NCBI GenBank assembly: GCA_009695195.1
Contig: SIBJ01000001.1
Location: 53,581-117,580 of the forward strand
Reading direction: 5' to 3'
From: Pedosphaera sp.
Lineage (GTDB): Bacteria; Verrucomicrobiota; Verrucomicrobiia; Limisphaerales; JADLHS01
Length of the DNA: 64,000 nucleotides
Shown: in pieces, positions 44,714 to 62,816 of the stretch
Numbering within the stretch: the first letter of the stretch is position 1
Layout: every line of letters starts with the position of its first letter
Made by a program: the position numbers and the translations under genes
The notes under the pieces: generated by a model
What the model was told of the DNA's origin: nothing
Database searches by the model: none
What the model saw: the letters and a program-made list of their open reading frames with translations, nothing else

Positions 44714-44801
44714 AACGCAGAGACGCAGAGGCCGCAGAGAGACGCGAAGGAATTCTTTGTGTTTTCTCTGCGAGCCTCTGCGGCCTCTGCGTCTCTGCGT
44801 T
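44714..44801. repeat. Hairpin repeat, family G (AACGCAGAGACGCAGAGGCCGCAGAGA arms)
   Basis: AACGCAGAGACGCAGAGGCCGCAGAGAGACGCG ... CTCTGCGAGCCTCTGCGGCCTCTGCGTCTCTGCGTT. A second copy lies at 54057-54153. It fills the nuoC-nuoD spacer. Confidence 0.7.
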
Positions 44802-46721: not shown

Positions 46722-46810
46722 AACCGACGTGTCCGCTAAACTAGAGAATTTCGCAGGCCAGTCAAGCCGACAGACCGGTTCAACCGCGAACGACTTGAAT
46801 GGTTTTGACG

Positions 46811-47018
46811 CTCGCCCTCACCCCGGCCCTCTCCCCCGAGAAGAGGGAGAAGCTGCGCGCGGCTTACGAAAATTTGGCCGTCACAATTGCAGTCGCCATC
46901 TCTCTGCCGTTCGCTCCAAGGCGCTCACAACAAACTGCGATGTCCGTATCGCCACCAACCGGCGAACGATTCTCCCTCTCCTGGGGGAGAGGGCCGGGGT
47001 GAGGGTGGTCGTTCCCAC
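46811..47018. repeat. Inverted pair of family M elements (CTCACCCCGGCCCTCTCCCC / GGGGAGAGGGCCGGGGTGAG) flanking about 115 bp
   Basis: The left copy (46811-46852) and right copy (46968-47018) are mutual reverse complements, giving a MITE-like architecture in the nuoE-nuoF spacer next to the tRNA. Confidence 0.65.
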
Positions 47019-48504: not shown

Positions 48505-48810
48505 ATGCCCAAGCTTTACGAATACTTCGGATTGATCGTGTTCTTCTACACCAATGAACATGAGCCGATTCACGTTCATGGCGAGTTTCAGAACGGCCAC
48601 GCCAAGGCGGAATTCTTTTTGAAAGAAGGCAACATCGTGCGGATTGTGTTCTCGAACGTGAACGGCAAACGCCCATTGCCGGGATACAAAATGAAGGATT
48701 TCAGAACCTTGGTGAACGCCAAAGCCGACGATATCGTCCGGCGTTGGATTGAATACTTTGTGTTCAAGAAACACAACAAGCCGGAAATCATTACCCGAAA
48801 AATCAAATGA
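48505..48810 (+). CDS. DUF4160 domain protein
   Basis: MPKLYEYFGLIVFFYTNEHEPIHVHGEFQNGHAKAEF matches my recollection of the DUF4160 N-terminal signature (xHxPxHxH). It starts 5 nt after the nuoF stop. The region looks AT-richer by eye. Confidence 0.8.
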   Translation: MPKLYEYFGLIVFFYTNEHEPIHVHGEFQNGHAKAEFFLKEGNIVRIVFSNVNGKRPLPGYKMKDFRTLVNAKADDIVRRWIEYFVFKKHNKPEIITRKIK

Positions 48811-49199
48811 AAGCGCTGGCGACAAAATATTTGGAAATCGTCCAAGCCGGATACGTTTCCGGCTACAAGATTCGATTGACGTTCAATGATGGGCTGGTTC
48901 GCGTCATGGACTTCGAGCCGTTTTTGCGCAAAGCCCTGAACCCCGACATCACAAAATACCGGCAATTTCGGAACTTCAAAAAATTCCATCTGCACTACGG
49001 TGATTTGATGTGGGGAGATTTCGATATGATTTTTCCGATAACGGATTTGCATCGCGGGAACATTCTCAAAGGGGAGGAAGCCGCTCTGTCTCACTTTGTG
49101 TTGAACGACACTGCCGCTCCGGCCAAACCAATTTCGGACAGGAAAACCAAAATTGTTTCTTACCAAAATGTGAAACGGAAAAAAGTTTTGCATGGCTGA
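48807..49199 (+). CDS. DUF2442 domain protein
   Basis: VSGYKIRLTFNDGLVRVMDFEPFL is the DUF2442-type beta motif. It has an ATGA overlap with the DUF4160 gene, which is the usual pairing, and its stop overlaps the nuoG start by 8 nt. Confidence 0.7.
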   Translation: MKALATKYLEIVQAGYVSGYKIRLTFNDGLVRVMDFEPFLRKALNPDITKYRQFRNFKKFHLHYGDLMWGDFDMIFPITDLHRGNILKGEEAALSHFVLNDTAAPAKPISDRKTKIVSYQNVKRKKVLHG

Positions 49200-52564: not shown

Positions 52565-53536
52565 ATGCGACGAATACTCCTCATAACAGCAGTCGTTCAA
52601 TGCCTGAGCGCTCTAAGCGCACAAGCCGTGACATTGCCTTTTGAGCAGAACTACGTTGAGCCATTCTACTCGTCAAAGCTTCAAGTGGTTTGGGCGGCCA
52701 CTAATCAATTGCCAGCGACGGCAAAGATTTACAAAGTTGTTCCGGCCAATTTTTCGTCGTCAGCCATTTCAAATCTTACGGCGCTGGGCGGTTCGGCAAA
52801 TCTCAAGCGTGGCGCAATGAACCTTTACAAGCCGACCGATGGGCGACTGCCTTTGGAGAAAGTCCCCGACAAGGCCAGAGCCTACGAACTTGGGATTGGC
52901 TTGCTCGCAAAGTTGGAGATTCCGGTTGGTGAATTGATGTCAGAGGGTGGAAAGCCGGTGGCTGGTTATTCTCCAGGCACGCGCGGTCACATGGACAAGG
53001 CCACTCGCAAGATGATAACCGAGCCTTGCACGATGGGAGTTCAGTTTCGGCGTGCGCTTGATGGCATCGAATGTTTCGGCCAGCAAGTCCGCATTCAATT
53101 TGAAAGTCAGGAGGCAATGACGCAGTTGGACGTCAGGTGGTGTGGCGTGCAAGCCGACAAGACCTGCGTGGTCGCCACTCCTGATCAAATCATTTCTTGG
53201 ATCAAGGAAGGGCGAGCACGGGCGCATCCGATTGAAACGACGGGCCAACGCTGGATCAGGGTCGCTGACATCAAGAAGGTCACAATTCGGCAAGTCCGGC
53301 TCTGCTACGATGCCGAGCCAGATACGGAGAACCCGGAGAAGTTCCCGAACTATTTGTATCCTTATTTGGGAATCGAAGCCGAAATCGAGTTCTCGTCCAC
53401 CGACCGCGAAACGTTGGGGATTTCCTGCCCCATCATCAAGGAAGCGTTAAGCAGCGCTAACCGTAAGACCAGCGAGTTCAACATTCTGCCAAAGACATTT
53501 TTCGAGAATGAAGCCCGGCGGGAGGGAAGCCAGTAA
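52565..53536 (+). CDS. Secreted hypothetical protein (323 aa) embedded between nuoI and nuoJ
   Basis: ATG 52565 lies 2 nt after the nuoI stop. Signal peptide MRRILLITAVVQCLSALSAQA. No family recognised. It ends 3 nt before nuoJ. The track ORF (52148-) extends spuriously upstream, out of frame, over nuoI. Confidence 0.65.
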   Translation: MRRILLITAVVQCLSALSAQAVTLPFEQNYVEPFYSSKLQVVWAATNQLPATAKIYKVVPANFSSSAISNLTALGGSANLKRGAMNLYKPTDGRLPLEKVPDKARAYELGIGLLAKLEIPVGELMSEGGKPVAGYSPGTRGHMDKATRKMITEPCTMGVQFRRALDGIECFGQQVRIQFESQEAMTQLDVRWCGVQADKTCVVATPDQIISWIKEGRARAHPIETTGQRWIRVADIKKVTIRQVRLCYDAEPDTENPEKFPNYLYPYLGIEAEIEFSSTDRETLGISCPIIKEALSSANRKTSEFNILPKTFFENEARREGSQ

Positions 53537-53539
53537 GCT

Positions 53540-54043
53540 ATGGAGGAAATCCTTTTCTATATCTTCGCTTTCCTGACGCTGATCTTCGGGGCGCTCGTCG
53601 TCGCGAATCCGTTCAGCCGCAACCCGGTCACGAGCGCGATGTTCTTGGTGTTAACCATCATCTCGATGGCGGGACTTTTTGTGCTGCTGCACGCGTTCTT
53701 CCTCGCGGCGGTGCAAGTGCTCGTCTATGCCGGCGCGGTCATGGTGCTGTTCCTCTTCGTCATCATGCTGCTGGACTTGAAAGAGGAAGAACGCCGCAAA
53801 GTCAAAAAGCTCAGCCTCGTCGCCGGATTGATTTCCATCGGCGCAATCGTCGGCATCTTCGTAAAGTCACTGCTCGCGACACAGCCCGTCAAGGATTTGC
53901 CCGCGCCGATGCACGACGGTGCGACCATCCCGCTCGGCAAGCTGCTGTTCACGAATTACCTGTTGCCGTTTGAAATCGTCTCGCTCCTGCTCCTCGTGGC
54001 GATGGTGGGGGTGATTTTGTTGAGCAAGAAAGATTTGAAATGA
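53540..54043 (+). CDS. nuoJ: NADH-quinone oxidoreductase subunit J
   Basis: 167 aa with 5 TM segments. AAVQVLVYAGAVMVLFLFVIMLL is typical of NuoJ. Confidence 0.88.
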   Translation: MEEILFYIFAFLTLIFGALVVANPFSRNPVTSAMFLVLTIISMAGLFVLLHAFFLAAVQVLVYAGAVMVLFLFVIMLLDLKEEERRKVKKLSLVAGLISIGAIVGIFVKSLLATQPVKDLPAPMHDGATIPLGKLLFTNYLLPFEIVSLLLLVAMVGVILLSKKDLK

Positions 54044-54056
54044 ACTATGGCCAGAT

Positions 54057-54153
54057 AAACGCAGAGCCGCAGAGCCGCAGAGAACGCGGAGAAACGCAGA
54101 GGAAATCATTTTCTTTTCTCCGCGAACCTCCGCGGCCTCTGCGTCTCTGCGTT
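54057..54153. repeat. Hairpin repeat, family G
   Basis: AAACGCAGAGCCGCAGAGCCGCAGAGAACGCGGAG ... CTCCGCGAACCTCCGCGGCCTCTGCGTCTCTGCGTTT. It fills the nuoJ-nuoK spacer. Confidence 0.7.
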
Positions 54154-54181
54154 TAGGTTTTTGCCCCACGGTTAAAAGAAA

Positions 54182-54487
54182 ATGAACGTCGGCCTCGAAC
54201 ATTATCTTGTGGTGAGTGCGCTGTTGTTCGCGCTCGGTCTGCTGGGCGTCATCACGCGACGCAACCTGCTTGTCGTTTACATGTCGCTGGAGTTGATGCT
54301 CAACTCGGCGAATCTCGCGCTCGTCTCCTTTTCGCGGTTCAACGACAACCTCAACGGTCAGGTGATGGTGTTCTTCATCATCACTGTGGCGGCGGCGGAA
54401 GTGGCAGTCGGCCTCGCGCTGATCGTGGCGCTCTACCGCAAGCGCCAGAGTGCGCACGTCGAAGACCTGACGAGCATGAAACTTTGA
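54182..54487 (+). CDS. nuoK: NADH-quinone oxidoreductase subunit K
   Basis: 101 aa. [22 protein letters not shown]....MS.ELMLN is the NuoK signature. Confidence 0.9.
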
Positions 54488-54507
54488 TGATGAAAGGCGA
54501 AAGAATT

Positions 54508-54743
54508 CAACGCAAAGGCGCAAAGACGCAAAGACGCGAGGAATCCTTTGCGCGACGGGCGTTGTGCGGCGTAGCGCAGGTTTCCAAACCTGCTGTATCG
54601 CCGATTTCCAAATCGGCGTGGCGTGTTGATTCAGAGCGCGTCGAACTTGCGGGCGGCCTGCGGGTTTGGAAACCCGCGATACAGCAGACTTGGAAGTCCG
54701 CGCTACAGACTTTGCGCCTTTGCGCCTTTGCGCCTTCGCGTTG
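54508..54743. repeat. Nested hairpin repeats: family H outer arms enclosing a family I element (54571-54706)
   Basis: Outer arms are CAACGCAAAGGCGCAAAGACGCAAAGACGCGAGG ... CTTTGCGCCTTTGCGCCTTTGCGCCTTCGCGTTG. The inner element is GTAGCGCAGGTTTCCAAACCTGCTGTATCG ... CGATACAGCAGACTTGGAAGTCCGCGCTAC, with further small hairpins. Confidence 0.65.
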
Positions 54744-54755
54744 GAAAATTACCGG

Positions 54756-56657
54756 ATGAAACTCGAAGCGCTACCTTGGTTGGTCTTGTTCCTGCCGCTG
54801 CTCGCGGCGGGCATAATCACGCTGTTCACCCTGCGCAACAAAACGGTCAGCGCCACGTTGTCCATTGGCGCGATTGTGACGGGCTTCGTCCTCACGCTGG
54901 CGGTCATCAAGTTCGGCGGCTGGGAAGCGCGCGAACTTTCCGTCAACTGGCTCTCCATCGGCGGCCTGAACGTGGACTTCGGCCTCAAACTCGACGCGCT
55001 CAGCCTGATGATGCTCCTCATCGTCACCGGCGTCGGCAGCGCGATTCATATTTATTCCTACGGCTACATGCGCGAAGACCCGGGCTTCTCACGCTTCTTC
55101 GCGTGCATGAGTCTGTTCACGTTCTCGATGCTTGGCATCGTGCTCTCGAACAATTTCCTCCAGATGTTCATTTTCTGGGAACTGGTCGGTGTGTCGAGCT
55201 ACCTGCTCATCGGTTTCTGGTTTGAAAAACCCAGCGCGGCGGATGCGGCGAAAAAGGCTTTCATCACGAACCGGCTCGGCGACTTCGGGTTCATGCTGGG
55301 CATCCTGACGATTTTCGCCATCGTCGGCTCGCTGAACTTCGGGACGATTCAAGAACTACTCAAAGTGAACCCAGCATTGTTCGGAGCATCAGCCACGCTC
55401 GCCGGTCTGTTGATTTTCTGCGGCGCGATGGGCAAGTCCGCCCAATTTCCGCTGCATGTCTGGCTGCCCGACGCGATGGAAGGCCCAACCCCCGTCAGCG
55501 CGCTCATCCACGCCGCGACCATGGTGGCCGCTGGTGTTTACATGCTGTGCCGCGCGTTCTTCATCTTCTCGCCGGATGCGCTGACCGCCATCGCCTGGAT
55601 CGGCGGTTTCACCGCCTTGCTCGCCGCGCTCATTGCCGTCCAGCAAAACGACATCAAGCGCATCCTCGCCTACTCGACGCTGTCGCAACTCGGCTACATG
55701 GTCATGGCTGTGGGCTTGACTGGGCCGACGCCCGCGATGTTTCATCTCACCACGCACGCGTTCTTCAAGGCGTTGCTGTTCCTCGGCGCAGGCTCGGTCA
55801 TTCACGCCATGCACCATGAGCAGGACATCTGGAAGATGGGCGCGCTCCGCAAGAAAATGCCCGTGACGTTTTGGACGTTCCTTGTCGGCACGCTCGCGCT
55901 CTGCGGCGTCCCGCCGTTCAGCGGCTTCTACTCGAAGGACGCGATCCTCGCGCAGGCGTTGCACGCGCACAACTACCCGCTCTTCGCCGTCGCCGTGTTC
56001 GTCGCGGTGCTGACGACGTTCTACATGTTCCGCTTGTTCTTCGTCGCGCTTGTCGGCGAACCCAGAACGAAGGAAGCCGAACACGCGCACGAATCGCCCG
56101 GCGTCATGATCTGGCCGCTGAGAATTCTCGCCTTGCTGAGCGTGATTGCTGGAGTGATGGGCATTAACAAGATTTTTGACCTGTACTCAAGTAGAGTGCT
56201 TCCTCCCTTTACGTATGAAATCCCCGTCGGCGAATTTTCAGGAGCAGTCAAATATGTAGGAAGGCTGCTCGAACCATTCCAACATGCGCCTGTCGCTGCG
56301 TTCGGTGGATTGATTGCTGTTGTGATTGGTTTCCTCGCCGCCAAGGTGCTTTACGGCAAAGCCAAGACCGATCCGCTGCCCGCCAAACTCGGCGCGTTGT
56401 CCCGCGCGATGGCGAACCGCTTTTACTTCGACGAAATTTACGAAGCCACGGTCATCCGCATCCACGACACCATCGCCGCGATCTCCGACTGGATTGATCG
56501 CTGGATCGTGGAAGGCTTTTGCATCGGCCTGGTGCGCGGCGGAACGGATTTGACGGGCCGCGCGCTGCGCCTGGTCCAAACGGGTAACCTCCAGACCTAC
56601 GCCTTCCTGTTCGTGCTCGGCGTGGCCGTGGTGCTGTGGTTCGTGCTGGGGAAATGA
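54756..56657 (+). CDS. nuoL: NADH-quinone oxidoreductase subunit L
   Basis: Start at ATG 54756 (MKLEALPWLVLFLPLL). Antiporter-like motifs FWELVGVSSYLLIGFW and KSAQFPLHVWLPDAMEGPTPVSALIHAATMV. Confidence 0.92.
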   Translation: MKLEALPWLVLFLPLLAAGIITLFTLRNKTVSATLSIGAIVTGFVLTLAVIKFGGWEARELSVNWLSIGGLNVDFGLKLDALSLMMLLIVTGVGSAIHIYSYGYMREDPGFSRFFACMSLFTFSMLGIVLSNNFLQMFIFWELVGVSSYLLIGFWFEKPSAADAAKKAFITNRLGDFGFMLGILTIFAIVGSLNFGTIQELLKVNPALFGASATLAGLLIFCGAMGKSAQFPLHVWLPDAMEGPTPVSALIHAATMVAAGVYMLCRAFFIFSPDALTAIAWIGGFTALLAALIAVQQNDIKRILAYSTLSQLGYMVMAVGLTGPTPAMFHLTTHAFFKALLFLGAGSVIHAMHHEQDIWKMGALRKKMPVTFWTFLVGTLALCGVPPFSGFYSKDAILAQALHAHNYPLFAVAVFVAVLTTFYMFRLFFVALVGEPRTKEAEHAHESPGVMIWPLRILALLSVIAGVMGINKIFDLYSSRVLPPFTYEIPVGEFSGAVKYVGRLLEPFQHAPVAAFGGLIAVVIGFLAAKVLYGKAKTDPLPAKLGALSRAMANRFYFDEIYEATVIRIHDTIAAISDWIDRWIVEGFCIGLVRGGTDLTGRALRLVQTGNLQTYAFLFVLGVAVVLWFVLGK

Positions 56658-57772
56658 AATCGCGATCTGCCAACAAAAAAACTTTGAGGAAGGCCCGCCC
56701 GGCCTCGCGGAAGATTGTCGCGACATCGTCGCGACAATTGGCGAAGGCTTCTCCCAAAGCCTTGCTGGTAGATGTGCGAGAACTGATTCTCGCCGCGCGC
56801 GCGGGCGTGGCGCGCACGGTCAATGCCGGCCTGACTCTGCTCTATTGGGAGGTTGGGAATCGCATTCGCGTGGATGTCCTCAAGGAGCGGCGAGCTGGTT
56901 ACGGCGAGGAAATTGTGCAGACGTTGTCGGCACAATTGGAAATCGAGTTCGGGCGCGGGTTCAGCAAGCGCAACCTTTTCAGCATGGTCGCTTTTGCCGA
57001 GGCATTTCCTGACCGGAAGATTGTGCAGACACTGTCTGCACAATTGGGCTGGAGTCATTTCAAGGAAATCATTCCGCAGCAGGATGAATTGAAGCGCGAC
57101 TTCTACGCCGAGATGTGTCGCATGGAGCGATGGAATGTGCGGACGCTGCGGCGGAAAATCGGTGGAATGCTTTTCGAGCGCACCGCCATCTCAAAGAAGC
57201 CCGACCAACTCATCCGCCAGGAACTCAAAGCTCTCCGCGAGGAAGACCAACTCACCCCCGACCTCGTCTTCCGTGATCCTTATGTGCTGGATTTTCTCAA
57301 GCTCAAGGACAGCTACAGCGAAGGCGACCTCGAAGCCGCGATTCTGCGCGAGATCGAGTCGTTCATTCTGGAACTCGGTGAGGGCTTCTGCTTCGTCGCG
57401 CGGCAGAAGCGGATGCAGATTGACGACCGCGATTACCATCTTGACCTGTTGTTCTTCCATCGCAAGCTGCGCCGGCTCGTGGCGATTGATTTGAAGCTGG
57501 ATGATTTCGAGGCCGCCGACAAAGGGCAGATGGAACTCTACCTGAACTGGCTCAAGAAACATGAGCAAAGCCCGGACGAAGCGCCGCCGCTCGGCATCAT
57601 CCTGTGCGCGGGCAAACGGCAGGAACACGTCGAACTGTTGCAAATGGAACGCGACGGCATTCACGTTGCCAGCTACGTGACGAAGTTGATTCCGAAGAAG
57701 CAACTCGAGCGAAAGCTTCACCAGGCTGTGCGCTTGGCAAGGGCCCGGCTGGAGGAAACCAAACTTAGATGA
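56654..57772 (+). CDS. DUF1016/YhcG-family PD-(D/E)xK nuclease-domain protein
   Basis: The N-terminal DUF1016-like helical domain (NAGLTLLYWEVGNRI...YGEEIVQTLSAQL, a duplicated IVQTLSAQL motif, WSHFKEI) and the C-terminal nuclease core (GFCFVARQKRMQIDDRDYHLDLLFFHRKLRRLVAIDLK) match YhcG as I recall it. ATGA overlaps occur at both ends, with nuoL and nuoM. Confidence 0.8.
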   Translation: MKSRSANKKTLRKARPASRKIVATSSRQLAKASPKALLVDVRELILAARAGVARTVNAGLTLLYWEVGNRIRVDVLKERRAGYGEEIVQTLSAQLEIEFGRGFSKRNLFSMVAFAEAFPDRKIVQTLSAQLGWSHFKEIIPQQDELKRDFYAEMCRMERWNVRTLRRKIGGMLFERTAISKKPDQLIRQELKALREEDQLTPDLVFRDPYVLDFLKLKDSYSEGDLEAAILREIESFILELGEGFCFVARQKRMQIDDRDYHLDLLFFHRKLRRLVAIDLKLDDFEAADKGQMELYLNWLKKHEQSPDEAPPLGIILCAGKRQEHVELLQMERDGIHVASYVTKLIPKKQLERKLHQAVRLARARLEETKLR

Positions 57773-59418
57773 CGACGTTGACCTTAATCTTTGCGCTGCC
57801 GTTGCTCGCCGCAATCGCGCTGGCGTTTGTGCCGCGCAACTTTGCCGTCATCATGCGCGCCGTGGCGGTGGGTGTGACCTTCGTCACGATGCTGCTGGCG
57901 GTGCTGATGTTTTGGCGGTTCGACGCGAAGGCGGAAGGCTATCAATTCGTCAGCACCATTCCCGGACTCGGCGCGGAGTCGCTCGGTATCGCCTGCAAGC
58001 TGGGCGTGGACGGTTTGAACGTCGGGCTGGTGTTGATGGGCGCGATCGTTGCGTTCGCGGCGGCGTGTTGCTCGTTTGAGATCAAGTCGCGGGAGAAGGA
58101 GTTTTACATCCTGCTGCTCGTAATGACCGGTGGCATCCTTGGCGCGTTCATGTCGCTCGATCTGTTCTTCTTCTACTTCTTCCACGAACTCGCGCTCGTG
58201 CCGACGTTCATCATGATCGGCGTGTGGGGTCGCGGGGAGAAGAAGAACTACGCCACGTTTCAGATCACGCTTTACCTGAGCATCGGCGCATTGCTGGCGC
58301 TCATCGGCCTCATCGCGCTTTACCTGCAAGTGCCGGCGGACGTTCGCACGTTCGACATCCCGACGCTCACAAAGTTTTTCACGGAACATCCAATGGCGCT
58401 CGCGTCGCAGAAATTTATTTTCCCGATGCTGCTGTTTGGCTTCGGAATTCTCGTTTCGCTCTGGCCGTTTCATTCGTGGGCGGCGCTGGGTTACTGTTCT
58501 GCGCCGAGCGCGACGGCGATGTTGCACGCGGGTGTGCTGAAAAAGTTCGGGCTCTACGGTTTGATCCGCGTGGCGCTGCCGTTCATGCCACAGGCGGCGC
58601 AGACTTGGATGCAAATCCTCGCGTGGCTCGCGCTTGGCAACGTGCTTTACGTCGGCTGGGTCGCGATGAAGCAAAAGAACCTGAACCTGCTCATCGGCAA
58701 TTCCAGCGTGGCGCACATGGGCATGATCTTCCTCGGCATTGCGAGCCTGAACCTCATCGGCGTGACCGGCGCGGTGGTCATCATGATCGCGCACGGCTTC
58801 CTCGCGGCGCTGACGTTCGGCTTGAGCGGCTACATCTACAACCAGACCGGCACGCTCGAAATGAGCGAACTCGGCGGGCTGGCGAAGAAGCTGCGTTTCA
58901 TCGGCGTGGCGTTCGTGATGGCGGCGATGGCGGGTTGCGGCCTGCCGGGCTTCTTGAATTTCGTCGGCGAGGTCACGGTGTTTTTCGGCGCCTGGGCTCA
59001 ACCAAGCTTGCGCGTCGTCACCGTGCTGGCGGTGTGGGGCGCCCTGATCATTGGTGCAGTTTACATGCTGCGCGCGGTGCGGGCGGCCTTGCATGGCCCG
59101 ATGCCGGAGAAGTGGGCAGACGTTTCCGACGCAAACCTGTGGCGCAAACTACCCTATGCCCTTTTGCTTGCGAGTTTGCTGGTGTTTGGTTTCTTCCCGA
59201 AGTTGCTCACGGAAAAAATCAAGCCGGTGACGGAACAGATTGTGAACATGGCGGTGGTGAAGGCGGTTGTTGCCGAGAAGCCGGACGCAAAAAATCCCCT
59301 CACCCCGGCCCTCTCCCCTTCTGAAGGGGAGAGGGAGAATCGTCGGCAGTTGTCTGGCAGTTTCGGTGCTGCTGGTGACTTGATACCCGACAAAAAATTG
59401 CCAATAGCCAAGAAATGA
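57769..59418 (+). CDS. nuoM: NADH-quinone oxidoreductase subunit M (with a repeat-derived C-terminal extension)
   Basis: Antiporter-like TM core (FFHELALVPTFIMIGVWG, HAGVLKKFGLYG). The last 50 or so codons (KNPLTPALSPSEGERENRRQ...) run through the family M repeat. Confidence 0.9.
   Translation: MTTLTLIFALPLLAAIALAFVPRNFAVIMRAVAVGVTFVTMLLAVLMFWRFDAKAEGYQFVSTIPGLGAESLGIACKLGVDGLNVGLVLMGAIVAFAAACCSFEIKSREKEFYILLLVMTGGILGAFMSLDLFFFYFFHELALVPTFIMIGVWGRGEKKNYATFQITLYLSIGALLALIGLIALYLQVPADVRTFDIPTLTKFFTEHPMALASQKFIFPMLLFGFGILVSLWPFHSWAALGYCSAPSATAMLHAGVLKKFGLYGLIRVALPFMPQAAQTWMQILAWLALGNVLYVGWVAMKQKNLNLLIGNSSVAHMGMIFLGIASLNLIGVTGAVVIMIAHGFLAALTFGLSGYIYNQTGTLEMSELGGLAKKLRFIGVAFVMAAMAGCGLPGFLNFVGEVTVFFGAWAQPSLRVVTVLAVWGALIIGAVYMLRAVRAALHGPMPEKWADVSDANLWRKLPYALLLASLLVFGFFPKLLTEKIKPVTEQIVNMAVVKAVVAEKPDAKNPLTPALSPSEGERENRRQLSGSFGAAGDLIPDKKLPIAKK
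59298..59339. repeat. Family M hairpin inside the 3' end of nuoM
   Basis: CCTCACCCCGGCCCTCTCCCC-TTCTGAA-GGGGAGAGGGAGAA shares its core with 46811-47018 and 3927-3972. Confidence 0.6.
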
Positions 59419-60875
59419 ATTTGTCATTGATGAGTTTGGAAATCGTGGTGGTCTTGCTTGGCATTACCGTGCTGATGGCGGATTTGTGGCTGCCGGCGGA
59501 GCGCAAGCGGATGCTCGGCTACGCGGCGGCGGCGGCGTTGGGGCTTCTCTTTCTGAATACGTTTACCAGTCATTGCAGTTGCAGTTTGACGGATGGTCAA
59601 ACGGCCAGTACTGCGGGCGGGATGTTCATCCAGGACGGCTTGTCGGTTTTCTTCAAACGCTTTTTCCTGATCGCCGCGGTGCTGGTATTGATTCTGGCGG
59701 TGGAGTTTTCGGATCGCATCGCGGTGGGCGTGTCCGAGTATTACTCGCTCATCATCTTCGCCCTGGCGGGGATGTTGTTTGCCGCATCCGCGAACGACTT
59801 CGTGATGCTTTTCGTTTCCATCGAACTCATCACGATCACGTTTTACGTGCTGACGAGTTTTACGCGTGGCAAGGTTGTCGCGTTGGAGGCGGGCGTGAAG
59901 TATCTGATTCTCGGCGCGCTGGCATCGGCATTCATGGTTTACGGCATCGCGCTGGTTTGGGGAACGACCGGTAAATTCAACTTCAGCGAACTCTCGATGG
60001 TTTCGGCGAAGTTTGCGGAGAACAAGTTGTTCCTGTTCGGCGTGTTGTTCATCCTCGTTGGTCTGGGTTTCAAGATCGCGGCGTTCCCGTTCCAGATGTG
60101 GACGCCGGATGTTTATCAAGGCGCGCCCACCCCGACGACCGCGTTCCTCGCCGTCGGTTCAAAGGCCGCCGGCTTCGTTCTGCTGCTGCGCTTCCTGTTC
60201 ACCGCCATTCCGGAAGTGACGGCGCACTGGAAAAATCTGCTCATTGTGATTTCCGGCATCACGATTCTCTACGGCAATCTCTGCGCCATTCCACAGCGAA
60301 ATCTGAAACGGTTGCTGGGTTATTCCAGCATTGCCCATGCGGGGTATCTTTTGCTGGGTGTGGCCGCGTTGACAAATGCGGGTCAATCGGCAGTGCTTTA
60401 CTATCTGAGCGGTTACCTGTTTACGACGCTGGCGGCGTTCACGGTGATTGCGTTGGTGATGCGGCATCTCGACACGGAAGACATCAGCGGCTTGGCGGGA
60501 TTGAGCCAGCGTTCGCCGCTGCTGGCTGCAACCCTAACACTGGCGATGATTTCGCTGGCGGGCATTCCGCCGCTGGCGGGATTCTTTGGAAAATTCCTGC
60601 TGCTGAAAGCCGTCATCGAGCAGGGCGCGACGAACCACGGTTACTATTGCCTCGTGTTCACAGCGCTCGTCGGCGTGGTGATCTCGCTCTACTACTACTT
60701 CGGCGTCGTCCGCGCGATTTACTGGAGCAAGGATGTGCCGGACCGTTCGCCGATTTGCATTTCGCGGCCGATGCGGCTCGCGGTTTGGGTTTGCATCGCT
60801 GGGATGTTCTGGCTGGGACTTTTCCCCAACGCCGTGCTCAAGCTGGCGGACTCCGCGGTGAGTGTTCTGAAGTAA
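59415..60875 (+). CDS. nuoN: NADH-quinone oxidoreductase subunit N
   Basis: ATGA overlap with nuoM. Antiporter-like core (FKIAAFPFQMWTPDVYQGAPTPTTAFLAVGSKAAGF). Confidence 0.9.
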   Translation: MNLSLMSLEIVVVLLGITVLMADLWLPAERKRMLGYAAAAALGLLFLNTFTSHCSCSLTDGQTASTAGGMFIQDGLSVFFKRFFLIAAVLVLILAVEFSDRIAVGVSEYYSLIIFALAGMLFAASANDFVMLFVSIELITITFYVLTSFTRGKVVALEAGVKYLILGALASAFMVYGIALVWGTTGKFNFSELSMVSAKFAENKLFLFGVLFILVGLGFKIAAFPFQMWTPDVYQGAPTPTTAFLAVGSKAAGFVLLLRFLFTAIPEVTAHWKNLLIVISGITILYGNLCAIPQRNLKRLLGYSSIAHAGYLLLGVAALTNAGQSAVLYYLSGYLFTTLAAFTVIALVMRHLDTEDISGLAGLSQRSPLLAATLTLAMISLAGIPPLAGFFGKFLLLKAVIEQGATNHGYYCLVFTALVGVVISLYYYFGVVRAIYWSKDVPDRSPICISRPMRLAVWVCIAGMFWLGLFPNAVLKLADSAVSVLK

Positions 60876-60888
60876 TCCGGTCGCCCGG

Positions 60889-61362
60889 TCACTTGCCGAT
60901 CGAAATCAGGAGGCAGGCGGGTTCGCGGAACATTGCGTTGTCGGAGGCGCCGGGCGAAACCGCTTTTCCCGATACCGCGCCCCAGGGCCGGTCGCTTTCG
61001 CCCCAGCAGAAATATTTTCCACCGGTCGGCGTCGAAGGCAGCGGGCGTGGAACAGCCAGGCGAATGATGAGCAGGTCCAGGATTCTACGACCGAGGCTGC
61101 GTTCGCCGCCGGGGCGACTTCGACGAAGCCCTTCGATCAACGGGCCGCTGACGATCAAATCGCTTTTGCCGATTCGCAGCGGAGGGGAATTGGACTTCAC
61201 CTGCAAAATCCGGTCCCAGTGCGCCGGGCTGTAATCCCAAGCGGGCATGGCGACGGCGGACGATGAAGCCTTGAGCGAAACGTTTGTGGATTCCGCGCCT
61301 GCCCAACCGGCGAACGCGGTCAGCAGCGCTACGATGGTCAACTTTCTGGAAGCCGCAGCCAC
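60889..61362 (-). CDS. Hypothetical secreted protein (157 aa)
   Basis: GTG 61362 gives (M)AAASRKLTIVALLTAFAGWAGA, which is signal-peptide-like. The longer track ORF upstream of this point is Arg-rich shadow sequence. No family recognised. Confidence 0.4.
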   Translation of the reverse strand: MAAASRKLTIVALLTAFAGWAGAESTNVSLKASSSAVAMPAWDYSPAHWDRILQVKSNSPPLRIGKSDLIVSGPLIEGLRRSRPGGERSLGRRILDLLIIRLAVPRPLPSTPTGGKYFCWGESDRPWGAVSGKAVSPGASDNAMFREPACLLISIGK

Positions 61363-61397
61363 AAAGAACTGACCCGCGCGAACCCGAATTCGTTCAA

Positions 61398-62816
61398 CTA
61401 CACGGTGCGCATCTGGACGGCGTCCACGACCTGATCGCCGACCAGGATCGAGCCGATGATGACGATGGTCTGGCCCTGGGAGATAAAATTCTTTTCCGTG
61501 AGTTCCTTCACGGCGTCTTCGATGGTGTTTTCGGGATTGATCATGTCGAACGGTACGACGAGCGGGGTCAATCCCCAGTTCAAGGTCAGCCCCGCCGCGA
61601 CCTCCGCGCGGGCGCACAGGGCGTAAACCTTCGAGTAACGCGGGCGCATCCAGGCGGTGTGCCGCGCGACGTGGCCGAGCCGGGTGAAAACGAAAATGGC
61701 CTCGGCTTTCAAATCGTTCGCGAGGACGACGGCGCTCTTGACGAGTTTCTGGCGCGCGGTGCTCAACTCGGCGTGCGCCTCGTAATGCGCGCCGCCGCTG
61801 CGCTCGATCCGCCGTGCGATGCGGTCGAAAACTTCGATGCACTGCAACGGATATTTGCCCACGGTCGTCTCGCCGCTGAGCATGATGGCGTCGGCTTGTT
61901 CAAAAACCGCGTTCGCCACGTCGGTGACTTCGGCGCGCGTGGGCATGGGGGAGGCGATCATGCTCTCGAGCATGTGCGTGGCGACGATGACGGGCTTGCC
62001 GGTACGCAGACACGATTTCACGATGCGGCGTTGGACGATCGGAAGTTCCTCGTACGGAATCTCGATGCCGAGGTCGCCGCGCGCGATCATCACCCCATCG
62101 GCGGCGGCGATGATCTCGTCCAGATTCCTGAGCGCTTGCTGATCTTCAATCTTGGCGATGACGAGCGGCGGCGGTTTGCCCTCTCCAAAAAGTTCACGGA
62201 GCTGCTGGAGATCGCGGGCTTCGCGGACGAAGGAGAGGGCGATGAAGTCCACGCCCAGCTCCAGGCCGAGTTCGACGTCCTTGATGTCCTTGGCGGTGAG
62301 CGCGGGGAGGCTGACTTTGACGCCGGGGAGATTGATATGGCGGCGGCTGCCGAGTTTGCCGGCGGTGAGGACTTCGCACTCGACGCGGTTGCCGGACTTG
62401 GCGAGGACTTTCATGTGGATCGCGCCGTTGTCGAGCAGCACCACGTCGCCGACGCTGATGTCGTTGACGAAATTCTCGTAGTTCACGTCCACGGAATGTT
62501 CCTCCTCGCTGCGTTCGCCGCGGACGGTGAGCGTGAATTTCTCGCCGGGTTTCAAATCGAGCGGCACGGGCAGGTCGCCGGTGCGGATGGCCGGGCCTTG
62601 CGTGTCCATGAGAATACCGACGAAGCGCCGGCTCGCGGCGGCGGCGGCGCGGATGTCGGTGACGACGCGGCGCACCCAATCGTGCGTGGCGTGGGACATG
62701 TTGAGGCGGAAAACATTCACGCCCGCTGCGATGAGTTGCGCGAGCATGGCGGGCGAATCCGTGGCGGGGCCGAGCGTGGCGATGATCTTGGTTTTTCTCT
62801 GCGCTTCCGTCGGCAT
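61398..62816 (-). CDS. pyk: Pyruvate kinase
   Basis: RKTKIIATLGPAT...NVFRLNMSHATH...MIARGDLGIEIP...VATHMLESM. Start placed at ATG 62816. Confidence 0.92.
   Translation of the reverse strand: MPTEAQRKTKIIATLGPATDSPAMLAQLIAAGVNVFRLNMSHATHDWVRRVVTDIRAAAAASRRFVGILMDTQGPAIRTGDLPVPLDLKPGEKFTLTVRGERSEEEHSVDVNYENFVNDISVGDVVLLDNGAIHMKVLAKSGNRVECEVLTAGKLGSRRHINLPGVKVSLPALTAKDIKDVELGLELGVDFIALSFVREARDLQQLRELFGEGKPPPLVIAKIEDQQALRNLDEIIAAADGVMIARGDLGIEIPYEELPIVQRRIVKSCLRTGKPVIVATHMLESMIASPMPTRAEVTDVANAVFEQADAIMLSGETTVGKYPLQCIEVFDRIARRIERSGGAHYEAHAELSTARQKLVKSAVVLANDLKAEAIFVFTRLGHVARHTAWMRPRYSKVYALCARAEVAAGLTLNWGLTPLVVPFDMINPENTIEDAVKELTEKNFISQGQTIVIIGSILVGDQVVDAVQMRTV

Follow-up and report, generated by a model that had tools for sequence, protein, structure and literature searches.

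The nuclease family YhcG/DUF1016 (PF17761 + PF06250; COG4804; PDC-S02), of which Escherichia coli YhcG is a member, has been described as carrying the motif E-D-E(I/L/V)K, and parallels have been drawn between its nuclease domain and Holliday-junction resolvases (PMC1189080). DUF1016 has been reported inside type I restriction-modification (R-M) loci and operons (PMC9881135), a member of the YhcG family lies on a rickettsial conjugative element (PMC4316617), and the database PADLOC holds the family as PDC-S02, a candidate single-gene anti-phage system. A biochemical report on a YhcG/DUF1016 member was not found in the literature searched. Here we describe a yhcG gene in a 64,000-nucleotide (nt) stretch of a Pedosphaera sp. 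assembly (contig SIBJ01000001.1, positions 53,581 to 117,580; hereafter the window), where it stands between nuoL and nuoM in the operon for respiratory complex I. We regard it as moderately probable that this gene is a functional accessory nuclease cassette, occupying a hot spot for insertion within the operon for complex I in a clade of Limisphaerales-like Verrucomicrobiota.

The window gene encodes the same two domains as E. coli YhcG, with the same E-D-(D/E)xK and QxxxY core, and both genes carry a palindrome at the homologous site in the sequence coding for the N-terminal domain. It is unlike E. coli yhcG in lying between nuoL and nuoM, in having a 39-residue extension that holds a third hairpin unit, and in using the D-x-K variant of the core. 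Free-standing homing endonuclease genes of the phage T4 Seg/Mob type are likewise found between conserved genes, and they resemble the window yhcG as intergenic nuclease open reading frames (ORFs) in a fixed position, with a patchy distribution, lateral transfer and, possibly, co-conversion of the flanks. The window gene differs from them in that its site also takes cargo other than nucleases, in that it resides in a bacterial chromosome rather than in co-infecting phages, and in its long-term purifying selection. Integration hot spots and defence islets also combine variable cargo (in the present case YhcG, PDDEXK_3, HEPN/MNT and DUF4160/DUF2442) with conserved flanks and exchange of alleles by recombination, whereas the window hot spot lies at stop/start junctions inside a housekeeping respiratory operon, and its cargo, instead of lying between transcription units, is co-oriented and, from the junction sequences, apparently translationally coupled. 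Type III toxin-antitoxin systems (ToxIN-like) have tandem RNA repeats of ~36 nt upstream of the toxin gene. This recalls the tandem structured units of ~34–38 nt, from 1 to 5 in number, that occur upstream of or within the potentially toxic yhcG nuclease gene. However, the yhcG units are simple hairpins partly in coding sequence, show no wobble signature and have no credible match in Rfam, and the protein has a PD-(D/E)xK fold and is not of the ToxN/CptN/TenpN type, which places the gene outside the type III systems.

Profile searches identified a complete YhcG protein. DUF1016_N (PF17761) matched at 153.7 bits (gathering cutoff 32.8) over profile positions 1–137 of 137, YhcG_C (PF06250) at 160.9 bits (gathering cutoff 32.5) over positions 3–156 of 157, and the PADLOC hidden Markov model PDLC04807 for PDC-S02 at E 9.5e-129 (protein 31–368, profile 10–348 of 351). 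Within the nuclease domain, E240, D264, K281, Q292 and Y296 were invariant and D279 was at least 90% conserved among 47 close homologues; in a set of 8 homologues with identities as low as 30%, E. coli YhcG among them, E240, D264, K281 and Y296 again did not vary. The catalytic motif E...D...(D/E)-x-K is present, with D at position 279 here and E or D in others. A preliminary description of this DNA had assigned the gene to the YhcG/DUF1016 PD-(D/E)xK nucleases and had placed a D...D/E-x-K core near its C-terminus. The assignment was borne out, and the core proved intact in the alignments, but its catalytic Asp is D264, together with D279-L-K281, and not part of the 'DDRD' run. With these residues in place, the aligned sequences indicate an intact core and a full YhcG protein, not the degenerate remnant that had been considered.

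In an AlphaFold2 (AF2) model, DUF1016_N was all-helical with a predicted local distance difference test score (pLDDT) of 70–87. The N-domain was the only confident part, mean pLDDT being 57 overall and below 50 for residues 1–31. The N-terminal extension has a conserved consensus among nuo-embedded orthologues and is mostly missing from homologues outside the nuo operon, most of which align from residues ~29–40. No relative of solved structure was found by sequence search, and a Foldseek search of the AF2 model against the PDB gave nothing with E <0.1; the weak matches to ParB/Noc-helix-turn-helix proteins and to Bax1/McrC/Can2 nucleases are leads only.

Homologues of the family were found on 524 plasmids and on 57 viral or prophage contigs, which, with the PDC-S02 match and the reports from type I R-M loci, agrees with the earlier statement that such genes usually occur in defence or mobile contexts. 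One homologue at 72% identity to the window protein lies amid IS66 fragments and not in a nuo operon. On the Citrobacter freundii plasmid NZ_CP056587.1 (L173:2778-5041), a YhcG homologue has a 4-nt overlap with the stop of the gene before it, which encodes a site-specific integrase, apparently another YhcG that is translationally coupled to its neighbour.

The window yhcG fits between its neighbours without a gap. As the preliminary description had it, its ATG overlaps the nuoL stop and its own stop overlaps the nuoM ATG, which the sequence and the ORF list confirmed; the nuoL start is placed at the in-frame ATG 54756, where homologue alignments begin. The cassette has the same orientation as the nuo operon. 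Within 54000–61500 no promoter-like or terminator-like site stood above chance, leaving the insert without a promoter or terminator signal of its own, and its GC content of 0.55–0.60 is not distinct from that of the operon, unlike the DUF4160/DUF2442 insert described below (0.455–0.475). A GGAGG motif near the 3′ end of yhcG is possibly the Shine-Dalgarno site of nuoM, and the arrangement '(T/A)GGAGGAA...AAACTTAG', followed directly by ATG, is conserved in two relatives (L007 and L067). The earlier picture of a clean insertion stands in all these respects. The cassette would then be carried on the nuo transcript, and termination-reinitiation at 'aaATGA', the native end of nuoL, would start its translation. 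Its frame would close on the native nuoM 'ATGA', with GGAGG 13 nt before the ATG, so that nuoM and nuoN could stay expressed.

The nuoL–nuoM junction was then compared across relatives by a NuoM scan of species-representative genomes, which gave 80 loci (handles of the form L001), all from metagenome-assembled genomes and mostly labelled Verrucomicrobiota, Limisphaerales or Pedosphaera. In most of these loci the distance from nuoL to nuoM is −4 to +6 nt, and the comparison shows such a gap to be the ancestral junction. YhcG was present at 10 of the ~75 scorable junctions, and its presence does not track the operon. Some 17 distinct Verrucomicrobiota (Limisphaerales-like) assemblies (~17) hold a YhcG orthologue at this junction with 69–91% identity, the range that also covers the closest database proteins, from Verrucomicrobiota metagenomes; several short metagenome contigs have the same nuoL-YhcG-nuoM placement. 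For homologues with at least 76% identity, every context looked up was between nuoL and nuoM with a 4-nt overlap at the nuoL stop, and this overlap is kept in every nuo-embedded orthologue examined. The downstream side is more variable: yhcG overlaps nuoM directly in the window, L007 and L067, is followed by a ~470-bp gap in L003, and by extra ORFs without family assignment in L001, L008, L011 and L055. In L074 (L074:9698-10882), a weak HNH-like remnant and a nucleotidyltransferase (MNT)/HEPN pair of toxin-antitoxin type lie between YhcG and nuoM.

Close relatives without yhcG reveal the uninterrupted site. The junction is empty in four loci of the window's own clade (L014, L016, L019 and L022), and empty sites of this clade read 'gggaaATGA TTTCG ATGacgacg', the uninterrupted junction being GGGAAATGA-TTTCG-ATGACGACG. 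Because the empty sites carry 'aaATGA' and 'ATGAcg', the start ATG and the final TGA of yhcG are native nuoL and nuoM sequence. The preliminary description had proposed a search for target-site duplications or repeat remnants at the two ends of the insert; neither a target-site duplication nor terminal repeats of the cassette were found, the flanking ATGA being native. Other members of the clade have different cargo at the junction: a ~660-bp PDDEXK_3 cassette flanked by inverted repeats in L012, L017, L020 and L024 (and in L029, just outside the clade), an inverted-repeat element resembling a miniature inverted-repeat transposable element (MITE) in L015 and L021, and other ORFs in L013 and L023. 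The cassette at L012:9334-10000 encodes a 145-residue protein (Pfam E 1e-35) and is bounded by the inverted repeats TTCAACGCAAAGACGCA...TGCGCCTTTGCGTTAA; PDDEXK_3 is a second PD-(D/E)xK family at this site. Fillers of 232–276 bp in L015, L021 and L035 were considered as deletion remnants of YhcG and rejected, since blastn found no similarity and the sequence is a MITE-like element. A further filler of ~262 bp (L031:5473-5734 and L032:9734-10000) contains several short hairpins that are perfectly paired and conserved, such as CAATTCGGCG-TCT-CGCCGAATTG and GTTTCGGGCG-TGA-CGCCCGAAAC, and may be a structured RNA or a repeat element.

The histories of yhcG and of its host operon were found to differ. 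Pairwise ratios of nonsynonymous to synonymous substitution (dN/dS; NG86 method, with dS often near 1) were 0.10–0.22 for YhcG compared with 0.08–0.25 for NuoM and 0.09–0.23 for NuoN, indicating purifying selection. A neighbour-joining (NJ) tree groups the nuo-embedded YhcGs in a single clade that branches within homologues from outside the nuo operon. In the host tree (NuoL+M+N), L003, with YhcG, is sister to L016, with an empty junction, and L001, with YhcG, is sister to L021, with the MITE-like element, both at 100% bootstrap. The YhcG clade of the window, L001 and L003 (100%) cuts across these host groups, and the YhcG tree conflicts with the Nuo tree. A more distant exchange is seen in L074, whose host clade is well separated (100%) and whose other members have an empty junction. 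Its YhcG is no more diverged than those of the close clade (dN 0.13–0.19, versus 0.22–0.26 for NuoM and 0.29–0.31 for NuoN), and the last ~18 residues of its nuoL (~100 nt) match the window's clade at 86% but its sister L080 at 67%. As judged from these comparisons, L074 acquired YhcG by transfer together with a donor nuoL flank. In the close clade, the last 48 codons of nuoL had a median dS of 0.35 versus 0.67–1.57 elsewhere, a 2–4-fold reduction that would fit recurrent recombination there, although selection on synonymous sites may also have contributed.

An intra-operon hot spot is suggested because the same junction also holds PDDEXK_3 cassettes, a HEPN/MNT pair and MITE-like repeats. On the comparisons above, the cassette entered the nuoL–nuoM junction once or a few times and has spread between related soil and freshwater bacteria, the simplest route being homologous recombination in the highly conserved 3′ end of nuoL and 5′ end of nuoM. 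It is kept by selection on its own protein and not on complex I, and the protein would act as a structure-specific or defence-type DNA nuclease, a role suggested by its family and context. Beyond what the preliminary description had noted, the arrangement is common to many genomes and laterally exchanged, and other nuo junctions also have inserts. Stop/start junctions inside an essential, conserved operon can thus be an insertion hot spot, where cassettes of nuclease and toxin-antitoxin type rely on the host operon for transcription and for their start and stop codons. This niche for accessory or defence genes is easily missed by island-based searches.

Several points weigh against parts of this account. 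The defence role is putative, and in the one published trial a PDC-S02 representative tested in E. coli B was not among the 4 candidates that protected against T4, T5 or T7 (bioRxiv 10.1101/2024.09.26.614923). The trees are NJ trees on protein distances, the relatives compared are without exception metagenome assemblies, the NJ bootstrap for a single nuo-embedded YhcG clade is only 57%, and mosaicism of the Nuo genes themselves is possible (in L008, NuoM is 91% identical but NuoL 74%). Translational coupling is deduced from the geometry of the overlaps. Finally, purifying selection over dS ~1 exceeds what a purely parasitic gene would need.

Much of the same evidence could also be produced by active homing, in which a free-standing homing endonuclease would cut the uninterrupted nuoL–nuoM junction in genomes without yhcG, and repair from a copy that bears the gene would install it with its flanks. 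In favour of homing, yhcG is a nuclease gene in one constant position between conserved genes, and its insertion disrupts the junction sequence; the patchy distribution, the presence and absence among close relatives, the conflict with the host tree, the flank tract co-transferred into L074, the low dS beside the junction and the single clade of nuo-embedded copies would fit as well. However, ordinary homologous recombination also accounts for the L074 flank, the low junction dS and the tree conflict. Because cargo other than nucleases (MITE-like repeats and the HEPN/MNT pair) uses the site too, homing is not needed and a general hot spot is indicated. YhcGs at ~72% identity occur in unrelated contexts such as prophages, plasmids and regions rich in IS66, filled and empty alleles are not told apart by any consistent immunity substitution, and long-term purifying selection is atypical of the gain-and-decay cycle of homing endonucleases. 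Site-specific cleavage by YhcG is putative, and we consider active homing unlikely.

The preliminary description had also offered co-option. In that case YhcG would be a partner of complex I (in assembly, regulation or nuo-mRNA processing) or a 'guard' that senses interference with it, a role that would account for its place in the operon. Purifying selection as strong on YhcG as on the Nuo subunits and the upstream overlap kept in all nuo-embedded orthologues would suit such a partner, and effectors such as PrrC, embedded in type I R-M operons, provide an analogy. This proposal did not hold up against the junction comparison: the closest sister genomes lack YhcG and have a clean ancestral junction (L016 versus L003), most sampled Verrucomicrobiota nuo operons have no YhcG, unrelated cargo can take its place, and the YhcG and Nuo trees conflict. 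The protein is moreover soluble, with no membrane or Nuo-related domain detected by Pfam. Co-option by complex I is not supported by these comparisons and appears very improbable. The hot-spot cassette is the reading that we retain for the position of the gene.

A second feature of the gene lies in its own coding sequence, which contains three copies of a 34-nt DNA repeat (56708–56741, 56906–56939 and 57014–57047). Each holds a palindrome of 25 nt, made up of two 11-bp arms around a loop of 3 nt, and no further copies occur elsewhere in the 64-kb window. A duplicated IVQTLSAQL helical N-domain had been noted earlier; the helical part of this is upheld by the AF2 model, but the duplication is the protein-level shadow of a palindrome in three 34-nt DNA repeats. 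Unit 1 (RNA fold −19.6 kcal/mol, z −4.7) sits in the N-terminal extension that most homologues outside the nuo operon lack, and a unit is found at +60 in nearly all nuo-embedded orthologues, with differing inner sequences. Units 2 and 3 lie in the region encoding DUF1016_N, unit 3 just upstream of an (S/P)W(S/G)H motif.

The conservation of pairing at the two DUF1016_N sites was measured in 78 distinct homologues (55–91% identity). The sites stay paired while the inner six base pairs vary freely, with arm variants GTGCAGAC/GTCTGCAC, GTCGTGAC/GTCACGAC, GTCGCCGC/GCGGCGAC and TTGCCGAC/GTCGGCAA, and the peptides change along with the arms (IVQTLSAQL, IVVTLSRQL, IVAALRRQL, ILPTLSAKL). In the unit 2 helix 86% of alignment cells were paired, with 9 of 11 pairs changed on both sides, and in unit 3 the paired fraction was 91%. 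Overall, 88.5% of cells were paired, versus 68.5% in shuffles (0 of 500 reached the observed value) and 30–49% in slid controls. Changes on both sides were seen in 344 cells versus 123 ± 8 in shuffles, giving a covariation score of 0.453 versus 0.123. When the same peptides were synonymously recoded, the number of Watson-Crick pairs out of 11 fell from the observed 9.0–9.7 to 5.4–5.7. RNAalifold found only two local hairpins, at units 2 and 3, and a long-range pairing of the two was rejected on this result. The idea that the palindromes form a shufflon with alternative coding was also rejected, since inversion between any two units brings stop codons.

Palindromes at the site homologous to unit 3 were found in much more distant genes. 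The E. coli K-12 gene has perfect 15-bp arms around a 3-nt loop (15+3+15) at nt +377, and further palindromes were found on a Citrobacter plasmid (13+3+13), on a Rhodococcus plasmid at 33% identity (14+3+14), in Aquincola (9+3+9) and in Legionella (7+3+7). In E. coli K-12 MG1655 (yhcG b3220, L172:8205-8237) the perfect 33-nt palindrome is AAAGATTTGGCAGAC-GCT-GTCTGCCAAATCTTT, within coding sequence for the peptide AKIWQTLSAKSF, and it folds as single-stranded DNA at −15.8 kcal/mol (z −8.3). For 39 of 58 diverse genes taken from plasmids and viral contigs, no hairpin anywhere in the gene is stronger than the one centred on the family-site codon. Compared with 1.77 Mb of flanking DNA, YhcG genes hold palindromes of this sort at a 33-fold higher density. 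Extra units lie upstream of the start codon or outside the reading frame of the protein motif: L098 has three units, spaced by 38 and 37 nt, and L112 and the yhcG paralogue of L020 have three leader units each, the latter with one more at the family site in its coding sequence. Because extra units fall in leaders and in other reading frames, the constraint is on nucleic acid and not on protein. On these comparisons, conservation of the palindrome overrides amino-acid conservation across the family. A base-paired element kept across phyla in coding sequence constrains the DNA more than the protein.

Unpaired cells of the palindromes comprised 38 G-T, 56 A-C and 155 other combinations, compared with a random expectation of 1:1:4. 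The lack of G-U enrichment speaks, though not decisively, against ordinary selection at the RNA level and in favour of either DNA, as a hairpin or cruciform, or RNA that is strictly helical. Our best guess is that the palindrome serves YhcG itself, acting in cis as a structured ligand or as a regulatory site, and the helical N-domain probably works with the hairpin units in and upstream of its own coding sequence in this capacity. A wider proposal, that YhcG/DUF1016 nucleases in general are self-contained modules with their own structured nucleic-acid ligand (a hairpin or cruciform unit at a fixed codon of the N-domain, in many cases repeated in the 5′ leader), which they would bind or cut for latency or movement, the nuo lineage moving in a homing-like manner through its nuoL and nuoM flanks, is put forward tentatively as a possibility that we hold in some doubt. 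In the literature searched, nothing relevant was found on a palindrome, hairpin or RNase III site in yhcG.

The main rival to a cis-acting ligand or regulatory site is that the palindromes have no function: as quasi-palindromes they would perpetuate themselves, intra-strand template switching during replication restoring the symmetry and the protein tolerating the amino-acid changes. Correction of quasi-palindromes by template switching is well established as a source of mutation, and it would fit the lack of wobble (G-T) enrichment among unpaired cells, the unconstrained inner sequence and the roughly one third of distant homologues (~1/3) without a long perfect arm. Such a process is harder to reconcile with a palindrome at the same codon down to 28–33% identity, in Proteobacteria, Actinomycetota, Planctomycetota and Verrucomicrobiota, with perfect arms of up to 15 bp. 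Neither would it be expected to give extra units in 5′ leaders and other reading frames, the 33-fold enrichment over flanking DNA, or the use of synonymous sites for pairing (9.7 of 11 pairs observed, 5.7 after recoding). We judge function-free palindromes to be improbable and favour the cis-acting element. The palindrome is the first concrete handle found on the large, uncharacterised YhcG/DUF1016 (PDC-S02) family, E. coli yhcG included, and the K-12 gene with its perfect palindrome offers a tractable model for the element. The features of the window locus are collected in Table 1.

Table 1. Positions in the window of the nuo-embedded yhcG cassette, its parts and the adjoining nuo genes.
Feature	Position	Strand	Basis or remark
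nuoL	54756-56657	+	Pfam Proton_antipo_N + Proton_antipo_M; complex I antiporter-like subunit
YhcG/DUF1016 nuclease gene, probable inserted cassette, 372 residues	56654-57772	+	Pfam, PADLOC, orthologues at same junction
ATGA overlap, nuoL stop/YhcG start	56654-56657	+	sequence; YhcG ATG 56654-56656
N-terminal extension, residues 1-39, K/R-rich, modelled as disordered	56654-56770	+	Pfam domain begins at residue 40
Palindrome unit 1	56714-56738	+	ATTGTCGCGAC-ATC-GTCGCGACAAT, encodes IVATSSRQL; 11/11 complementary
DUF1016_N helical domain, residues 40-176	56771-57181	+	Pfam E 4e-45
Palindrome unit 2	56912-56936	+	ATTGTGCAGAC-GTT-GTCGGCACAAT, encodes IVQTLSAQL
Palindrome unit 3	57020-57044	+	ATTGTGCAGAC-ACT-GTCTGCACAAT, encodes IVQTLSAQL; family-wide site
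YhcG_C PD-(D/E)xK nuclease domain, residues 205-355	57266-57718	+	Pfam E 2.8e-47
Core residue E240	57371-57373	+	invariant alignment column
Core residue D264, in HLDLLF	57443-57445	+	invariant alignment column
Core residue D279	57488-57490	+	at least 90% conserved in close homologues
Core residue K281	57494-57496	+	invariant alignment column
Core Q292..Y296 (QxxxY)	57527-57541	+	conserved alignment columns
GGAGG in YhcG 3′ end, possible Shine-Dalgarno site for nuoM	57751-57755	+	13 nt upstream of nuoM ATG
ATGA overlap, YhcG stop/nuoM start	57769-57772	+	YhcG TGA 57770-57772, nuoM ATG 57769-57771
nuoM	57769-59418	+	Pfam Proton_antipo_M; ORF list
nuoN	59415-60875	+	Pfam Proton_antipo_M; ORF list; downstream of cassette
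Empty-junction DNA			GGGAAATGATTTCGATGACGACGTTGACC within nuoL/nuoM context

Inserts were also found at other junctions of the nuo operon, and none of these cargo genes or repeat motifs was found elsewhere in the window (the remaining ~45 kb; for the repeat motifs, the first ~43 kb). Between nuoF and nuoG (48505–49199), a DUF4160 gene (101 residues) and a DUF2442 gene (130 residues) overlap by 4 nt and are co-oriented with the operon; their low GC content, given above, compares with ~0.57 in the flanks. In relatives L003–L005 such a pair lies between nuoH and nuoI. Between nuoI and nuoJ (52565–53536) there is a 323-residue ORF with a signal-peptide-like start (MRRILLITAVVQCLSALSAQA) and no Pfam or PADLOC match. 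Long inverted-repeat (MITE-like) elements are present between nuoC and nuoD (44714–44801), nuoE and nuoF (46808–47012), nuoJ and nuoK (54056–54155), and nuoK and nuoL (54508–54743). The last of these has arms CAACGCAAAG(A/G)CGCAAAG, as at the PDDEXK_3 cassettes of relatives, but contains no ORF. Relatives also have PDDEXK_3 between nuoJ and nuoK, together with other ORFs at nuo junctions, and in L020 (L020:2363-3529) a second, distant YhcG paralogue (35% identity) lies between nuoG and nuoH.

The 3′ end of the window nuoM contains a perfect 12+3+12 palindrome, CCCTCTCCCCTT-CTG-AAGGGGAGAGGG, at 59297–59334, of the 'GGGGAGAGGG' repeat type. The window NuoM has 549 residues, compared with the ~500–533 that align in most relatives, and a repeat element may have been absorbed into its C-terminus.

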